Source: an uncultured Candidatus Saccharibacteria bacterium (GTDB taxonomy: Bacteria; Patescibacteriota; CPR2; UBA1875; CAIMLA01). From it: DNA of 64,000 nt. Location: positions 14,771 through 78,770 of the forward strand of contig CAZCRI010000005.1 in assembly GCA_964501135.1 (NCBI GenBank), in the 5' to 3' direction. Below are positions 3,700 to 10,555 of the stretch, piece after piece (position 1 is the stretch's first letter; every line of letters begins with the position of its first letter). The notes beneath the pieces are model-generated. The model made no database searches and was not told where the DNA came from. It saw only the letters and a list, made by a program, of their open reading frames with translations. Made by a program: the position numbers and the translations under genes.

Positions 3700-3743
3700 T
3701 TATCTAAGACGGCTAAGGCCGGCGCTCCGGATGGAGCGCCGGC

Positions 3744-4394
3744 CTACAAGCCCAGTGCCTCTTTCGCCGCCACGGTTGCTTTCTGCAACCTTGGCGTCTT
3801 GTTGTAGTCGAGTAGGGTGACTCCCACCACGTTCTCTGGAATCCCACATGCGGCTTGCGCCGCCAAGACTCGTGCTGACAGCCCCCCGTCGGGAAGCCAC
3901 ACTAGTCCCGCAAGATGCGCGTAAGGGCTTCCATTCGATGGACCGAACTGTACCAGTCCCCGAATCTCCACGTTCGCTACGCCGTTGTCGTAGTAGTAAC
4001 GACCGCCCACTACTGTCAACGGCAGCAGAGTGTGCGCAAAAGCACGAAGTTCCTCGGGTATCTCTCTGCCCACAATGGTAGGTACTGTCTGAAACTTGCG
4101 AAAGTGCTCCGCACCAGAGAAGTGCAGGATCACGCTAGCAAGGTCCACCTTGCCGGTCGTCTGCTTTGCAGTCTCTGCAATCTCCTCGATAGGACGCAGC
4201 TCACGAACCGGAAGCTCGGCCTCTTTCTCGGTAAGACATCTTCCGAATGGCCCGAGAGCGTCGACAAAGTCCTCTGATGTGTTGCACTTCAGATACTCTG
4301 CCGCCTTCACCATCACGATGTTATCGGTACCGCCGCAGGTAGGAAGCAGATGGACGAGTCCATATCTGCCACCCTTGGTTATTTCCAGGTTCAT
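3744..4394 (-). CDS. hypothetical protein immediately downstream of hypC (position where hypD is usually found, but lacks HypD CGxH/GPGCPVC/CPVC motifs)
   Basis: 216-aa ORF, 12-nt gap after hypC, ~58% GC; sequence MNLEITKGGRYGLVHLLPTCGGTDN...; no diagnostic motif. Confidence 0.45.
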   Translation of the reverse strand: MNLEITKGGRYGLVHLLPTCGGTDNIVMVKAAEYLKCNTSEDFVDALGPFGRCLTEKEAELPVRELRPIEEIAETAKQTTGKVDLASVILHFSGAEHFRKFQTVPTIVGREIPEELRAFAHTLLPLTVVGGRYYYDNGVANVEIRGLVQFGPSNGSPYAHLAGLVWLPDGGLSARVLAAQAACGIPENVVGVTLLDYNKTPRLQKATVAAKEALGL

Positions 4395-4405
4395 GCGCTC
4401 ACCTC

Positions 4406-4624
4406 CTAGTGACTACTGTTGGCCTGGGAAATCAATTGTAGTATTTCTTCTGCGTCTTTACTAGGGATTCTGCTCACCGCAAGTTCACCATGGGCAAGAA
4501 TCCAGTCCCCAACCTGGGGATTGTCTATCAGCGAAAGCTCTACTTTATACTCTTTTCCGCCGTGAACGACATATCCATAGTCACCTTCGACGCGAATCAT
4601 TTGCATTGGTGTTGCGAGACACAT
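4406..4624 (-). CDS. hypC: [NiFe]-hydrogenase maturation chaperone HypC/HupF
   Basis: 72 aa beginning MCLATPMQMIRVEG (canonical MC[LI][AG][IV]P N-terminus with essential Cys2), typical size. Confidence 0.8.
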   Translation of the reverse strand: MCLATPMQMIRVEGDYGYVVHGGKEYKVELSLIDNPQVGDWILAHGELAVSRIPSKDAEEILQLISQANSSH

Positions 4625-4679
4625 AGTTACCTACTTTCGACAGCCACTCTCTGTTGGCTTTAATATCTGAATTAAATTC

Positions 4680-5096
4680 TTAAGCTACAGCTCTGTTTTG
4701 CTGTGCTTCAATGTATTGCCTTGCCTTTTCGACATCTATCGCATAAACCAAGGTTCTCCCGTCTTCTAGAATTCGATAAACAGTCGTAGGACGTACAACG
4801 CGTAGGCCAGGCTCCCCGCCATAAACCGGCATTGCCACCTTGATTGCTGCTTCTTCTGAGACTTCTATATTCCCACCAAGATAAATCAAATTATCTCCAG
4901 CTACTAATATCGTATTTTCTGGATCCATCTCCATCAGATGTTGAACCTCTAGTACGTTTGGCTTCTCCCCTACACCGTATTCGACATGGTAGTTCTGGGC
5001 AGTCTTTTCCGAAGACATTTGCCCGCTATTGTAGCCGCGCCACTCGTTTCGTGGCTGCTGCTCCTTCTCTGGTTGTGGATTATATCCTTCTATCAT
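4680..5096 (-). CDS. hypothetical protein (138 aa)
   Basis: ORF only; no motif recognised. Confidence 0.35.
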   Translation of the reverse strand: MIEGYNPQPEKEQQPRNEWRGYNSGQMSSEKTAQNYHVEYGVGEKPNVLEVQHLMEMDPENTILVAGDNLIYLGGNIEVSEEAAIKVAMPVYGGEPGLRVVRPTTVYRILEDGRTLVYAIDVEKARQYIEAQQNRAVA

Positions 5097-5598: not shown

Positions 5599-6159
5599 TT
5601 ACAGAGAAGCTAAGGCCTTTTGTATTCCTAGATATCCAGCTTCGGCATCCTTGACACATTCCGGGAAAGTAAGGACTGCCTTTTTCTGTTCAAATTTTCT
5701 TTGTACGTAGGCGATAAACTGCTCTTTACTATAGCCACGCGAAAGCAAATCTTCATAATAGAGCCTTAGTTTGTCCCAAGTAATAAATTTGTAGCATTCA
5801 GCATTTTTCATAACCTCGGCTGCCAAAGTTTCTGCTTTCCCTGACTTATGATGATCTCGAATCGACTGCAATATCTCTGTGCTTTTATCCCTTGGGCATC
5901 CCCATTGTTCTAGATAGTTCTCAGCCATACTAGCGCTAAGTTCTGGGTGGTTTTTTTGAACTTCACCACCTACCTCTTTATCAAAGCAAATATGTGCTAG
6001 GTAAAGTGCAACCACTACTGTTTCGGCATCTACCCCGTACTTTTTGGACAATTCCCTTCCTTTTGCTACAGCTGTTTCCGTAAGCTCCCAAACCGGCGCT
6101 CCATTTTCCAATGTCTTTTGATACATCAAGACACGTGCATTTTCTATTAAATCCGTCAT
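5599..6159 (-). CDS. hypothetical protein (187 aa from MTDLIENARV...)
   Basis: ORF 5599..6219; internal Met at 6159 chosen to avoid overlap with the upstream gene. Confidence 0.35.
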   Translation of the reverse strand: MTDLIENARVLMYQKTLENGAPVWELTETAVAKGRELSKKYGVDAETVVVALYLAHICFDKEVGGEVQKNHPELSASMAENYLEQWGCPRDKSTEILQSIRDHHKSGKAETLAAEVMKNAECYKFITWDKLRLYYEDLLSRGYSKEQFIAYVQRKFEQKKAVLTFPECVKDAEAGYLGIQKALASL

Positions 6160-6160
6160 C

Positions 6161-6628
6161 TTAGTAACCCTTCGGCGGTTTAGTTTTCTTATCTGGCTTT
6201 TGAAGATCAAGGGCCGCAAGTTGCCTCATAATCTCACTTACTTCTAGCGATACGGTTTGTGGATGTAACCCCTTGGCCTCTAGAATCATATTTACCTCTA
6301 CAATAGTTTTCTCAAAATCATTCTTATTCTTCTGATTAATGTCCTTCCAGGCGATACCAGCTAGAGCCTCGGCTGTTTCGTTATGGTAAGACAAGATACC
6401 TTTGGCAAAAAGGAGGGCAATCGCTGGATACCCCAAGTAACCGGCAAAGAAAGAGGCATTGTCATTGGCATATATCTGTCTGGTTTCCGGGTTGTATGAA
6501 ATCGTGTAGTACTTGCCACGCGACGATGAATAGAGCTTCGCACTGTCTCCATCAACTTTAATTCGGTCATCGCCAATAGCCCCAAGGGCCTCGTATACCT
6601 TAATTGTTGGTGGCATCGTCCATTTCAT
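6161..6628 (-). CDS. hypothetical protein (156 aa from MKWTMPPTIKVYEALGA...)
   Basis: Six-frame ORF extends to 6790, but that part overlaps the tRNA exon and group I intron core; internal Met at 6628 chosen. Confidence 0.35.
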   Translation of the reverse strand: MKWTMPPTIKVYEALGAIGDDRIKVDGDSAKLYSSSRGKYYTISYNPETRQIYANDNASFFAGYLGYPAIALLFAKGILSYHNETAEALAGIAWKDINQKNKNDFEKTIVEVNMILEAKGLHPQTVSLEVSEIMRQLAALDLQKPDKKTKPPKGY

Positions 6629-6633
6629 AGATA

Positions 6634-6664
6634 TATTATAGCTCAAAAAATAAAAAGAGCCGCA
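6634..6664 (-). terminator. Rho-independent terminator downstream of tRNA-Ile exon 2
   Basis: Minus strand: AGAGCCGCgttGCGGCTCT hairpin followed by TTTTTATTTTTT. Confidence 0.7.
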
Positions 6665-6728
6665 ACGCGGCTCTAATTTCCAATTTGGTGGGCCTGGCTG
6701 GACTTGAACCAGCGACCAATCGGTTATG

Positions 6729-7336
6729 CGTACCACTACAGCTTTCACTGCCCCTTTCGGGTTTGTAATCTGGACTATCCCTTCTTCCACGTGGGAAGTC
6801 TGCCAACTAGTCTCTACACCTTCCCCGACGATGCTGTCGGGACTTGGCTCGGGATTGCCATGACGTTTTCACGCTTTAGGTTTCCCCGAATTTGACAGAA
6901 TATACTAATGGATCGCTCCACTAGCAGCCCTTTGACTACTTGGCCTATCTAGAGTATTATCGGATTATGAAGGACTTCATAAACTGCAAGGTCTGCGGCA
7001 AACAACTATCGGGACGCCAACTGATGTTCTGTTCTGGCAAGTGCAAGAACAAAGTACATCAGTCTTATGGTGCCCAAAAGGAACGCGCCCTAGAGAGAAA
7101 GCTTTACTTTATCCGTTTGCTCGGCGGCAAATGCCAGGAGTGCGGATATAGCGAGAACCTAGCAGCCCTTTCCTTCCACCACAAAAGCGGTAAGGAATAT
7201 AAGCTGGATTCAAGATCGCTTTCCAATAGGGGTTTGCAGACAATGAGAGATGAAGTTGCCAAATGCGAGCTGCTTTGTGGCAACTGTCACATGAGACTTC
7301 ATAACCCTTCTCTGGACTTAGCCAAATTGTCAATTG
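6729..7336 (-). mobile_element. Group I self-splicing intron (608 nt) inserted between U33 and C34 of tRNA-Ile(CAU); core P3-P9 in 6729..~6900, long P1/P2 extension 6901..7336
   Basis: Intron RNA (minus strand) shows P3 UGUCAA/UUGGCA, P4 AAAUUCGGGGAAA / AAUCCCGAGCC (P/Q elements), P6 CCCGAC..GUCGGG, P7 GAGACUA / GGAUAGUCC (R/S elements), P8 CUUCC-cacgu-GGAAG, P9 CCC-gaaa-GGG. The 5' exon ends in U and the intron ends in G (GGUACG|CAUAA). Confidence 0.8.
6940..7336 (+). CDS. HNH endonuclease domain ORF (homing-endonuclease-like) encoded antisense within the intron P1/P2 extension; reads through in frame into tilS with no stop codon
   Basis: CKVCGK...FCSGKC zinc ribbon, then GGKCQECGYSENLAALSFHHKSGKEYKLDSRSL...CELLCGNCHMRLHN (CxxC...HH...N...CxxCH HNH signature). 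The ORF continues across the antisense tRNA exon 1. Confidence 0.6.
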
Positions 7337-7419
7337 AGCCGACTGCTCTAACCACTGAGCTACAGGCCCGCGAAATTGCTACGAATAGCAAGGGAATTAT
7401 AGCAAAAAAAGCACTGTCT

Positions 7420-8748
7420 GTGAAGGAATTTGGCTTTAGACTGACCACACTCGGCATCGAGAGGGAAACCAAGCTGGTTCTCGGCGTTTCTGGCGGTGTC
7501 GACTCCGTAGTGATGCTCGACCTCGTAGCGAGCTGCCTTCCAAAGCAAAACATGGTGATTGCTCACGTTAATCATGGATTCCGGGATGATTCGGACAAAG
7601 ATGAGAGATTTGTCCGTTCCTTGGCTAAGAAGTATGACATTACGTACACCTCTACAAAGCTAAAACCACACAACATGGCTTCAAACGAGTCGGGAAACCT
7701 CGAGGAATATTTTCGGGATAAAAGACGACGATTTTTACAGAATGCTGCCAAAAAATATGATGCGGGTTACGTAGCACTTGCCCACAATGCCGATGATCAG
7801 GCAGAAACAGTGCTGATGAATTTGGTCCGCGGAAGTGGTCCAGCGGGACTCTCCGGAATGAAAGAGCGCGAGGGTAAAATTCTTCGCCCCCTGCTAGGTA
7901 TTACGAAGACTGAGATTATTGCTTATGCAGAGATACACAAACTCAAATGGCACGAAGACACCACCAACACCGATACCAGCTACAACCGCAACTACCTTCG
8001 TCACCGAGTCTTACCGTTGCTTGGGCAACTCAACCCAGAGTACCTGGCAAACATTAGCCGCTCGGCAACGATTCAAGAAGAGATTGATGAATTACTAAAG
8101 GAGCGCGCCAAGTGGCTGGTAGAACAACTCCACACTAACACTTCAGTTTCTGCAGAGGTACCACGGCCAATTCTATACGAGGCCTTGGCGCAGATGTACG
8201 AAAAGGTAAAAGGTGATCGCAAGGAGCTCTCACTCGCCCATCTTGAAGCAGTCGCCCAGCTGGCAAGTGATGACCAAGGTACAAAAACCCTCGATCTACC
8301 GGGAAATGTTACAGCGAGGCGACGCTACAATCACCTTGATTTTGTGCTCAAAATGAGAGATAATAAAGCACCAATTATAGCCCCTCTTGAGCTATCTCTG
8401 GGGCACTCGAATTTTGGAAATTATAACGTAGAGATTACCGAATCTAACAGAGCCGACTCCAAGGACAAGTATTCTATTTTGCTCTCCTCCCTAGAAGGAT
8501 ACGTAATCCGCGCTGTCCTGCCAGGAGATAAAGTAGCAAAGACGGGTATGGAAGGCCATAAAAAGCTGCAAGACCTGTTCGTAGATGCTAAAATAGATAG
8601 GCAAAAACGTTCGCAAATTCCCCTTCTAGTCGGTACCACAAATAATGAAGTTCTGTGGATTCCCGGATTAGCAAAATCAAGAAACCTAGATAACAAAAAA
8701 CCGAAATATAGCATAACCATAAGCGAGGCCAGTCATGAAAACCGTTAA
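7420..8748 (+). CDS. tilS: tRNA(Ile)-lysidine synthetase TilS (likely start GTG 7420; six-frame ORF is continuous from the ATG at 6940)
   Basis: PP-loop LVLGVSGGVDSVVMLDLV (SGGxDS) about 18 aa after the candidate GTG start, total ~443 aa; conserved tilS-ftsH adjacency with 14-nt overlap. Confidence 0.8.
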   Translation: MKEFGFRLTTLGIERETKLVLGVSGGVDSVVMLDLVASCLPKQNMVIAHVNHGFRDDSDKDERFVRSLAKKYDITYTSTKLKPHNMASNESGNLEEYFRDKRRRFLQNAAKKYDAGYVALAHNADDQAETVLMNLVRGSGPAGLSGMKEREGKILRPLLGITKTEIIAYAEIHKLKWHEDTTNTDTSYNRNYLRHRVLPLLGQLNPEYLANISRSATIQEEIDELLKERAKWLVEQLHTNTSVSAEVPRPILYEALAQMYEKVKGDRKELSLAHLEAVAQLASDDQGTKTLDLPGNVTARRRYNHLDFVLKMRDNKAPIIAPLELSLGHSNFGNYNVEITESNRADSKDKYSILLSSLEGYVIRAVLPGDKVAKTGMEGHKKLQDLFVDAKIDRQKRSQIPLLVGTTNNEVLWIPGLAKSRNLDNKKPKYSITISEASHENR

Positions 8749-10555
8749 GAAAAATAAATATACTACCGTAATCGCAATAATCGTTGCCCTACTTGTGCTC
8801 GCTGGAGTTTATACCTATCTTGGCCAAGGCACTACGCCCAAAGCCGTAAGCATTAGTGATCTCGCTGGCGAAGTAAAAGATAATAAGGTTAGTAGCATTG
8901 TTGTTGAGGGTACAAACGTCATTATCACGATGAAAGACAAGACCAAACAGTCCTCGCAGATTGGTGCTAATGAGCAGATTACTACCACACTTAAAGATCT
9001 CGGTGCTGATCCAAGCAAGGTAAATTTGGACATCAAAGCGAGTAGCGACAACTCGATTTGGATTACCCTGCTCACTAGCGTCGTACCATTTATCCTTATC
9101 ATCGGTTTCTTTTACTTTATGCTCAAGCAAGCCCAAGGTGGCAACAACCAAGCAATGTCCTTTGGTAAATCTGGAGCCCGACTGGCGGACAACAAAAAGG
9201 ATAAGATTACCTTTGCCGACGTTGCTGGTGCCGCAGAGGCGAAGCAAGAACTCCTAGAAATCGTTGACTTCCTAAAACATCCCAAGAAATTCCTTGCCCT
9301 CGGCGCCAAAATTCCAAAAGGCGTACTCCTCTTCGGACAGCCAGGAACTGGTAAAACCCTGATGGCACGTGCTGTAGCCGGTGAGGCTGGGGTGCCCTTC
9401 TTCTCGATCTCCGGATCAGAATTCGTCGAGATGTTTGTCGGCGTTGGTGCCTCTCGTGTGCGTGATCTCTTTGCAAAAGCCAAGAAGAACGCTCCTTGTA
9501 TCATCTTTATTGACGAGATTGATGCCGTAGGTCGCCAACGTGGTACTGGTATGGGCGGCTCTCACGACGAACGCGAGCAGACCCTGAACCAGATTCTTAC
9601 TGAGATGGATGGTTTCGAGCAAGATACCAACGTGATCGTGATGGCAGCAACCAACCGACCAGATGTACTAGACCCTGCCCTGCAGCGTCCTGGACGCTTT
9701 GACCGTAAAGTTATTCTCGATATGCCAGACATCCAAGACCGTGAAGCTATTCTTATGGTTCACGCTAAGAATAAACCCCTCGCAAAGAACGTTGACCTCA
9801 AGGTAATCGCCCGCCAGACTCCAGGATTCTCGGGTGCTGACCTCCAAAACATCCTCAACGAAGCAGCAATCCTTGCCGCTCGAGAGAACAAAAAGGAAAT
9901 CTTTGCGATTGATGTTGAACACGCTGTCGAGAAAGTTTACCTCGGCCCAGAGCACAAGGGCGCTGGAATGAACGATAAAGAGAAGAAGATTACCGCTTAC
10001 CACGAGGCTGGACATGCAATTGTCGGCCATCTACTGGCTGGTACCGACCCAATCCACAAGATCTCTATCGTCTCCCGTGGTATGGCGCTCGGTGTTACCT
10101 GGTCACTGCCAGAAGAAGATAAGAAACTCTCTAGCAAATCAGAACTCGAAGATGACATCGCCATGATGCTTGGTGGTCGGGCTGCCGAAAAGATCTTTTT
10201 CTCGGATGTTACTACCGGTGCTAGCAACGACATGGAACGTGCTACCAAGCTGGCTCGCGAAATGGTAACTCGCTATGGCATGAGTGACGTCCTGGGCAAT
10301 CGAGTTTATGGCCGCAAGAACGAAATGGTCTTTTTGGGCCGCGAACTTGGCGAACATGACAAGGACTACTCCGAAAAAGTTGCCGCCCTTATCGACTCCG
10401 AGGTAGACAAGTTTGTTGAAAACGGCTACAAAAAAGCTACCGAAACTATCACCAAAAACAAAAAGAAGCTCGAAACTGTAGCTGCTGAGTTGATTGAAAA
10501 AGAAACCTTAGACGCAGAAGACTTCAAAAAGATTATGGATAAAGCAAAGGCATAA
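8735..10555 (+). CDS. ftsH: ATP-dependent zinc metalloprotease FtsH
   Basis: N-terminal TM, AAA+ Walker A GQPGTGKT, second-region-of-homology, HEAGHA zinc-binding motif; 606 aa. Confidence 0.95.

Follow-up and report, generated by a model that had tools for sequence, protein, structure and literature searches.

A Group I Intron in a tRNA-Ile2 Gene of Candidatus Saccharibacteria Carries an Antisense HNH Endonuclease Gene Continuous with tilS

The tRNA-Ile2 Gene and Its Group I Intron

The window analyzed here is a stretch of 64,000 nt from an uncultured Candidatus Saccharibacteria bacterium (assembly GCA_964501135.1, contig CAZCRI010000005.1, positions 14,771 to 78,770 of the forward strand). 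Its minus strand carries a tRNA(CAU) gene at c[6686..7369], which is interrupted between nucleotides 33 and 34 by an intron of 608 nt at 6729..7336 (ARAGORN, intron mode). On the plus strand, an open reading frame (ORF) begins inside this intron with an HNH nuclease domain and continues into the gene tilS, encoding tRNA-Ile lysidine synthetase. The intron core (6748..6944) matched the Rfam group I model RF00028 with 58.9 bits at a gathering score of 50. The splice sites are as expected of a group I intron, with a U preceding the 5' splice site (exon 1 ..GGCU) and a G as the intron 3' end (..UACG). The spliced tRNA was 89.5% identical to E. coli genes annotated as tRNA-Ile across all 76 nt. Because of this full-length match, the tRNA is assigned to tRNA-Ile2, i.e., the TilS substrate, as the original prediction, which had been made from the letters of the stretch, had proposed. 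Taken together, the element is most likely a mobile group I intron in a tRNA-Ile2(CAU) gene, for which self-splicing is predicted.

Throughout the intron family, intron nucleotides ~10–17 can pair with the RNA segment just past the ORF start. In 78 loci, these partners formed 7.1 bp on average within a locus, as compared to 5.8 ± 0.1 bp when the partners were swapped between loci. Thus, compensatory pairing of the flanking intron segments places the ORF in the loop of a peripheral helix. For P1 and the internal guide sequence, a search by hand gave no confident assignment, and the loop-closing helix is the only supported pairing. On the minus strand, a 209-aa ORF (6161-6790) extends across tRNA exon 2 and the intron core; a shorter gene of 154 aa from ATG 6625 is probably the real one. 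In the Logan annotation, the 209-aa form is called and assigned to PF27709 (UCP014422), whereas here the 209-aa form had no Pfam match and the 154-aa form no NCBIfam match.

The HNH Open Reading Frame and Its Promoter

The plus-strand frame is open from 6940 to 8748 and is present in the ORF list as a single ORF of 602 aa, in agreement with the original prediction. Since every homologue starts at the Met encoded by ATG 6967, a product of 593 aa from this codon is likely. Both the ORF start and the nuclease domain lie inside the intron. The coordinates obtained with Rfam and ARAGORN agree that the ORF lies on the strand opposite to that of the intron and tRNA exon 1, contrary to the arrangement usual in bacteria and phages, where ORF and intron share a strand.

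The predicted zinc ribbon and HNH motif were both recovered. The N-terminal part contains a zinc ribbon with four Cys, which are invariant in the family, and the motif CxxC..HH..N..CxxCH..H (C56, C59, H71, H72, N87, C104, C107, H108 and H112), which is likewise invariant in the family alignments. Profile hidden Markov model searches confirmed the TilS half of the expected domain architecture, with the TilS N- and C-domains above the cut-offs, but not its HNH half as named: the HNH models of Pfam and NCBIfam gave no match to the N-terminal part, encoded at 6967-7368, at E <= 0.1–1. Instead, this part was matched by the PHROG HNH families phrog_2255 (E 5e-21) and phrog_3106 (E 4.5e-17). A PDB sequence search returned nothing. 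In an AlphaFold2 model, the zinc-ribbon/HNH domain reached a predicted local distance difference test score (pLDDT) of 76. The nonsynonymous divergence (dN) of the HNH part was 0.15–0.24, with synonymous divergence (dS) saturated, and judged by these rates the HNH part is kept by purifying selection. The segment is most likely an intact homing-endonuclease gene, and DNA cleavage by its product is predicted.

A promoter-like site precedes the ORF within the intron (Table 1). The distance from the end of a -10-like hexamer to the ATG is exactly 6 nt in 72 of 83 related loci. Since the -10 box is located only 6 nt before the ATG, the mRNA would be leaderless. This geometry suggests that the HNH ORF has its own intron-borne promoter and is translated from a leaderless mRNA.

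The Junction between the HNH Domain and TilS

Downstream of the HNH domain, the ORF runs antisense through the 5' end of the intron, tRNA exon 1 and the tRNA promoter, and then in frame into TilS. Only 50 nt separate tilS from the tRNA 5' end; tilS shares both strand and frame with the HNH gene, and no stop codon intervenes between the two. The uninterrupted frame into TilS that had been predicted is therefore present, and the PP-loop SGGVDS begins at 7489. From the end of exon 1 to the SGG codon (7370..7488), the frame of the ORF contains no stop codon and the two other frames contain 3 and 2. The TilS part comprises the C-terminal 442 aa and matched TIGR02432 with 186.4 bits (cut-off 93.6), the TilS_C model TIGR02433 with 41.5 bits (cut-off 20.2) and PF01171 with an E of 1e-51. 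Linker residues 120–146 were predicted to be disordered (pLDDT below 50), while both flanking domains fold in the model; this would be expected of a tether encoded antisense to a tRNA and its promoter.

Unfused TilS homologues begin within ~3 residues of GTG 7420, a candidate internal start. No Shine–Dalgarno-like sequence precedes this codon, and the consensus scan gave no plus-strand promoter-like site between the HNH promoter and tilS. Read on the plus strand, the -35 element of the tRNA promoter is TGTGAA and includes GTG 7420. The GTG-AAG (Val-Lys) codons at the TilS N-terminus thus double as the -35 element TTCACA of the divergent tRNA promoter. Similarly, Ile-Ile-Ala-Lys in the linker is the -10 element TGCTATAAT read from the opposite strand, both in the window (7370-7424) and in the linkers of loci L087, L089 and L092.

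The Logan assembly of sequencing run ERR3839025 was 100% identical to window positions 6124..8996 (2873 nt). Since an independent assembly gave the identical sequence, an assembly frameshift does not explain the uninterrupted frame. The ftsH start overlaps the tilS stop, and on account of this overlap ftsH probably belongs to the same operon. The tilS-ftsH-murJ synteny recurs in relatives.

Table 1. Features of the tRNA-Ile2, intron, HNH and tilS locus in the window.
Feature	Position	Strand	Remarks and basis
Terminator-like intrinsic hairpin and T run	6656..6674	-	Just beyond tRNA 3' end; consensus promoter/terminator scan
tRNA-Ile2(CAU) exon 2 (nucleotide 34 to CCA)	6686..6728	-	ARAGORN with introns
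Group I intron, 608 nt	6729..7336	-	Core 6748..6944; antisense ORF in 5' part 6945..7336; Rfam, ARAGORN
Promoter-like site of HNH ORF (TTGACT, 17-nt spacer, TATTAT)	6932..6960	+	In intron, antisense; ends 6 nt before ATG 6967; consensus match
Peripheral helix, 3' strand	6938..6945	-	Pairs with 7320..7327, closing the ORF-bearing loop; compensatory changes
Zinc-ribbon and HNH nuclease domain (aa 1-113 of 593-aa ORF)	6967..7305	+	PHROG, family alignment, purifying selection, AlphaFold2
Linker (aa 114-151, contains ..LSIEPTALTTELQAREIATNSK..)	7306..7419	+	Antisense of intron 5' end, tRNA exon 1 and tRNA promoter; no in-frame stop
Peripheral helix, 5' strand (intron nucleotides 10-17)	7320..7327	-	Compensatory changes
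tRNA-Ile2 exon 1 (nucleotides 1-33)	7337..7369	-	Plus-strand reading ..SIEPTALTTELQA..; Rfam, ARAGORN, alignment
tRNA promoter, near-consensus sigma-70-type (TTCACA, 17-nt spacer, TG-extended TATAAT)	7396..7424	-	Consensus scan
TilS (tRNA-Ile lysidine synthetase) part	7420..8748	+	Candidate internal start GTG 7420 to stop; Pfam, NCBIfam
ftsH	8735..10555	+	Start overlaps tilS stop; ORF list

The Read-Through Architecture Recurs in Four Other Lineages

A search with the whole 593-aa protein returned ~28 further proteins of 507–638 aa covering 79–100% of the query, and a fusion unique to the window genome was thereby rejected. Upon alignment, these proteins fell into two kinds. The read-through kind, with an intact HNH domain, the peptide encoded antisense to exon 1, the linker and TilS, was found in L087, L089, L091 and L092. 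At the DNA level, the full ORF was present in all four loci and an intron-containing tRNA in three of them (L092 is without exon 2). The HNH parts of the read-through lineages were 73–81% identical, as compared to 44–53% for their TilS parts. L099 and L091 are both from run ERR3839025 and represent two different read-through genomes, with TilS parts that are 48% identical.

Between exon 1 and the SGG codon, the five read-through loci, including the window, all maintain the frame without an in-frame stop codon over 116–218 nt, and each other frame contains 1–5 stops. The tRNA promoter (TTCACA, 17-nt spacer, TGCTATAAT) occupies the corresponding position in four of these loci; in L091, the -35 element is TTTTCA. 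This locus has GAA where the others have GTG, and no ATG, GTG or TTG occurs between its nuclease domain and the PP-loop. Therefore, TilS of L091 would be made only as a fusion or from a non-canonical start codon. Fusion-agnostic scans at the DNA level, which also missed known fused members, returned no unfused member of the read-through HNH clade. A metagenome scan with an alignment of this clade gave no further member, the best match being 69% identical.

Catalytically Dead HNH-TilS Fusions Occur in Sister Lineages

In the second kind of protein, the N-terminal domain has kept all 8 Cys, but FHH is replaced by SFYD and CxNCH by CRNCxEE, so that the catalytic His residues are gone. At least 24 cluster representatives of such dead HNH-TilS fusions were obtained. 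A profile of their N-domain matched the intron HNH proteins at E 1e-32, and the domain is 37–39% identical to all intron HNH clades. In an exhaustive HMMER search, the dead motif was confined to TilS fusions and one truncated ORF. The genes lack the tRNA-antisense peptide, show the TGnTATAAT/6-nt/ATG geometry of the intron HNH genes and are located 74–95 nt from an intronless tRNA-Ile2 gene on the opposite strand. Relatives with empty-site alleles, which had been sought as a comparison for the intron, are thus available: L086, L088 and L090 carry an intronless tRNA-Ile2 gene at the same position upstream of tilS.

Among the dead fusions, mean identity was 57% for the N-domain and 51% for TilS, with a Spearman coefficient of 0.57 between the two. 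Since the dead N-domain is as conserved as TilS and tracks it, it has been inherited with TilS and is under constraint. A direct descent of the dead fusions from the read-through state was considered and found unsupported, as the linkers of L086, L088 and L090, when searched at the DNA level for traces of tRNA exon 1 or of the tRNA promoter, gave scores no better than those of shuffled sequences. In the NCBI annotation, the dead-fusion protein MEI6266289.1 is a plain TilS.

Some dead-fusion ORF calls (P0091, P0093 and P0216) have N-terminal extensions that likewise contain the IIAK(K) peptide. The short contigs of L086 and L090 that carry dead fusions begin inside the intronless tRNA-Ile2 gene (1-34 and 1-45, respectively), that of L086 one nucleotide from the intron insertion site. 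These contig starts could reflect a break of the assembly graph caused by presence/absence variation of the intron in the population.

The HNH Family Occurs in tRNA Introns of Several Phyla

Searches with the nuclease domain only gave 84 protein clusters from Candidatus Saccharibacteria, nearly all of 135–145 aa and 62–71% identical. All 84 read antisense across tRNA exon 1 (..LDLAKLSIEPTALTTEL..) and stop 2–15 codons later. These word-index searches missed every long fusion protein and are unusable for counting fusions. By scanning one genome per species, 80 loci were recovered from Saccharibacteria, Peregrinibacteria, Gracilibacteria, Moranbacteria, Anaerolineae, Bdellovibrionales, Latescibacteria and Acidobacteria. 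Here, the ORF is antisense in an intron of ~600 nt of a tRNA(CAU) or tRNA-Leu gene (ARAGORN; Rfam on a sample of 17 loci). In L004, L005 and L006, which share the tRNA-tilS-ftsH synteny with the window, TAA directly follows the tRNA, and a separate TilS of 436 aa is encoded ~107 nt further on in another frame.

The tRNA-Leu hosts (UAA, CAA, CAG and UAG) were found in L030-L078, e.g., L036 (3710-4408), L044 (3730-4407) and L049 (3714-4407), from Peregrinibacteria, Gracilibacteria, Moranbacteria, Anaerolineae, Bdellovibrionales and others; their ORFs stop near the 5' splice site and do not pass through the exon. In L041, a tRNA-Leu gene with an HNH intron (3714-4406) is adjacent to a tRNA-Phe gene with an ORF-less intron of 247 nt (4442-4761), and a second Rfam group I match was obtained at 4493-4738. 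Among distant relatives with 39–44% identity, L080 (3217-3856) and L081 (2947-3607) are sense-oriented inside tRNA-Thr and tRNA-Asn introns. L082 (4001-4703), also 39–44% identical, is free-standing directly upstream of an intron-containing tRNA-Asn gene, an arrangement reminiscent of free-standing endonucleases aimed at a neighboring intron site. L079 (3728-4250) and L083 (3727-4250) have introns of 447 nt with N-terminally truncated HNH ORFs (query residues 52-134 only) and are probably degenerating copies. Eight further proteins of 250–360 aa (P0211-P0215 and P0217-P0219) contain 2–4 tandem zinc-ribbon modules and 1–2 intact HNH modules of this family and outscored the TilS fusions on the dead-domain profile.

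The Trees of the HNH and TilS Parts Are Discordant

Trees were calculated by neighbor joining on Kimura-corrected distances with bootstrap, and not by maximum likelihood. In the tree of the N-domain, the dead type was monophyletic with 96.5% bootstrap. The read-through type was also monophyletic (98.5%) and sister to the HNH of the L004 type. In the TilS tree, the read-through lineages were scattered and their monophyly received 0% bootstrap. Instead, the window grouped with the dead fusion P0086 (67% identity) and L089 with the dead fusion P0097 (82% identity), each with 100% bootstrap. The anticodon stem of the intron-bearing tRNAs is GUCGG/CCGAU (GGCGG/CCGCU in L091), while that of the intronless sisters is GGGGA/UCCCU, the tRNA body being otherwise identical. 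Because the HNH parts are similar and monophyletic, whereas the adjacent TilS parts are divergent and non-monophyletic, this pattern fits horizontal spread of the intron by homing, with co-conversion of exon sequence, into lineages that have dead-fusion relatives. The occurrence of the HNH family in several phyla and different tRNAs is a further sign of horizontal spread. No 'double' locus combining an intron-encoded HNH with a dead HNH-TilS fusion was found.

Discussion

Under the explanation proposed here, plus-strand transcription from the intron promoter at 6932..6960 would yield a leaderless mRNA starting at ATG 6967. This mRNA would run antisense across the tRNA precursor region into tilS-ftsH, facing the minus-strand tRNA promoter, and tilS-ftsH would depend on the promoter borne by the intron. 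Ribosomes starting at ATG 6967 would meet no stop codon before 8746 and would produce a 593-aa protein of HNH domain, disordered tether of ~35 aa and TilS; GTG 7420 may serve as an additional start for part of the TilS. Intronless tRNA-Ile2 genes are the presumed targets of cleavage and homing by the nuclease. In lineages without the intron, loss of catalysis would be expected because an active enzyme would cut its own chromosome.

Several lines of evidence argue that the read-through has been selected as a fusion: its recurrence in five of five loci, linker lengths that change in frame, the absence of an internal start codon in L091 and the fixed fusions in sister lineages. On this basis, we consider it probable on balance that an HNH-TilS protein is made and maintained. 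Of the possibilities raised by the original prediction, the literal fusion is thus the one favored by the four other in-frame lineages, by L091 and by the fixed dead fusions.

A number of observations weigh against this fusion. The five read-through loci come from a search with a fused query and are subject to ascertainment bias. Most family members end with a stop codon right after the tRNA, and such a stop is followed by a separate 436-aa TilS in L004, L005 and L006, two of which have the same sequence, and in L093 from the metagenome scan, all four with the tRNA-tilS synteny of the window; therefore, TilS needs no HNH domain in general. GTG 7420 is conserved in four of the five read-through loci and aligned with the N-terminus of unfused TilS. 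This conservation is uninformative, since the same nucleotides are a conserved Val codon and the tRNA -35 element. The promoter assignments are consensus matches, and we infer the translation of HNH-TilS and the selection for read-through from sequence.

In a rival explanation, the read-through would be incidental, with HNH and tilS functionally separate, TilS synthesized from GTG 7420 and the long product rare and irrelevant, a scenario that we regard as unlikely but as deserving serious attention. It agrees with the start position of unfused TilS and with the stop and own tilS start in L004-L006, the closest outgroup of the read-through HNH clade. Moreover, the chance that a single locus has a stop-free in-frame junction, as inferred from the stop counts, is ~0.1–0.15. 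However, all five known members of the clade are in frame and stop-free despite their variable linkers and saturated synonymous divergence, and L091 has no canonical internal start. In the window, GTG 7420 is preceded neither by a Shine–Dalgarno-like sequence nor by a plus-strand promoter-like site of its own, which speaks against separate expression. In addition, the fixed fusions of the sister lineages indicate that N-terminal domains of this kind are translated and conserved.

Very improbable is the reading, likewise raised by the original prediction, of the HNH segment as a decaying homing-endonuclease remnant, with the long ORF an annotation artefact of lost stop codons. The failure of the Pfam and NCBIfam HNH models and the truncated copies in L079 and L083 would agree with decay. 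Against it stand the motif Cys, His and Asn, including the catalytic residues, all intact and invariant in the clade, the low dN at saturated dS, the PHROG match and the conserved promoter/start geometry. That the continuity of the frame stems from a sequencing or assembly error, which had been named as a way in which the read-through might fall, is scarcely credible given the identical Logan contig and the same architecture in four other genomes.

Beyond the production of a fusion protein, it is conceivable, though we propose it only tentatively, that TilS in a clade of Saccharibacteria has acquired its N-terminal domain, promoter and start codon from the homing endonuclease of the intron in tRNA-Ile2. 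If so, the window would represent the live state, in which an active mobile nuclease doubles as the TilS N-terminus, and the sister lineages the fixed state, in which the intron has been lost and an inactive nuclease is still conserved. A module recognizing the anticodon arm might then serve the binding of tRNA, the binding of the tRNA gene or the protection of the intronless site. In the usual view, a homing endonuclease is a selfish passenger and degenerates after fixation. With capture, the selfish element would be tied to two essential genes, tilS and ftsH, and shielded from this cycle of degeneration and loss.

Repeatedly, the endonuclease gene has come to form one frame with tilS, whose product modifies the very tRNA that the endonuclease gene interrupts. 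The loci thus offer a testable series from the nuclease of a mobile element to a part of an essential host protein, and one may ask whether a tRNA-modifying enzyme can make new use of a DNA-recognition module that targets a tRNA gene. Because this zinc-ribbon/HNH family is missed by Pfam-based surveys, mobile bacterial tRNA introns are probably under-counted and the rarity of homing-endonuclease genes (HEGs) in them reflects a probable underestimate of their number. On the practical side, dead HNH-TilS proteins such as MEI6266289.1 are annotated as ordinary TilS. The antisense HEG family and the dead fusions as its wider context appear to be undescribed so far.

Comparison with Known Systems

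A group I intron in the same tRNA as in the window is known from the tRNA-Ile gene of Azoarcus. In the available portions of a survey of tRNA group I introns (Nakagawa et al. 2026, PMC13011429), a PD-(D/E)XK endonuclease is described for introns at position 33/34 of cyanobacterial tRNA-fMet(CAU), and HNH genes detected with Pfam are reported only from tRNA-Asn introns of Patescibacteria and tRNA-Leu(UAA) introns of Bacteroidota. ORF-less IC3 introns are listed there at tRNA-Ile2 33/34 in Acidobacteriota (Table S5). In the same portions, a tRNA-Ile2 intron with an HNH gene in Patescibacteria is not reported and strand orientation is not discussed; the survey concludes that HEG-bearing tRNA introns are rare. 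Like the endonuclease-bearing introns of the survey, that of the window is of the group I type, interrupts the anticodon loop of a bacterial tRNA and has an endonuclease ORF in a peripheral region, and its 33/34 insertion site is that of the tRNA-fMet and Acidobacteriota tRNA-Ile2 introns. To the Acidobacteriota IC3 introns, its core is clearly similar (..AAAUUCGGGGAA.CCUAA.. ..GAGCCAAGUCCCGA.. ..GGUGUAGAGACU..), but those introns are ORF-less with 243–244 nt, whereas the window intron is ~360 nt longer and holds the antisense gene. The sense-strand HNH of a Paceibacteria tRNA-Asn intron in the survey tables is a visible relative of the window HNH, whose own family is not picked up by the kind of Pfam search used in the survey. 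Unlike the introns presented there, the window ORF is antisense, has a putative promoter of its own and leaves the intron through the 5' exon into a host gene.

Antisense homing endonuclease genes have been described in group I introns of nuclear rDNA at position L2066 (Mob DNA 2022, PMC9548176). As in these genes, the endonuclease of the window is encoded on the strand opposite to the intron RNA and thus needs its own expression signals. The rDNA genes differ from it in that they encode eukaryotic His-Cys box enzymes, contain spliceosomal introns and show neither fusion to a host gene nor overlap with an exon.

With canonical TilS, the protein of the window shares the PP-loop N-domain, the substrate-binding domain and the TilS_C domain, and the locus shares the tilS-ftsH synteny; it differs in an additional N-terminal segment of ~150 aa with the HNH nuclease. 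A literature search returned no published description of an HNH domain on TilS. Domesticated homing endonucleases are known, namely yeast HO and the maturases derived from LAGLIDADG enzymes. The dead HNH-TilS fusions parallel these in that a homing-endonuclease fold was kept by the host after its original role had been lost. Unlike HO and the LAGLIDADG maturases, they belong to another nuclease family, and the domain is fused to an enzyme modifying the RNA product of its own target gene. Under the proposed explanation, the locus would combine two known kinds of arrangement, i.e., an intron-encoded homing endonuclease and the capture of a domain.

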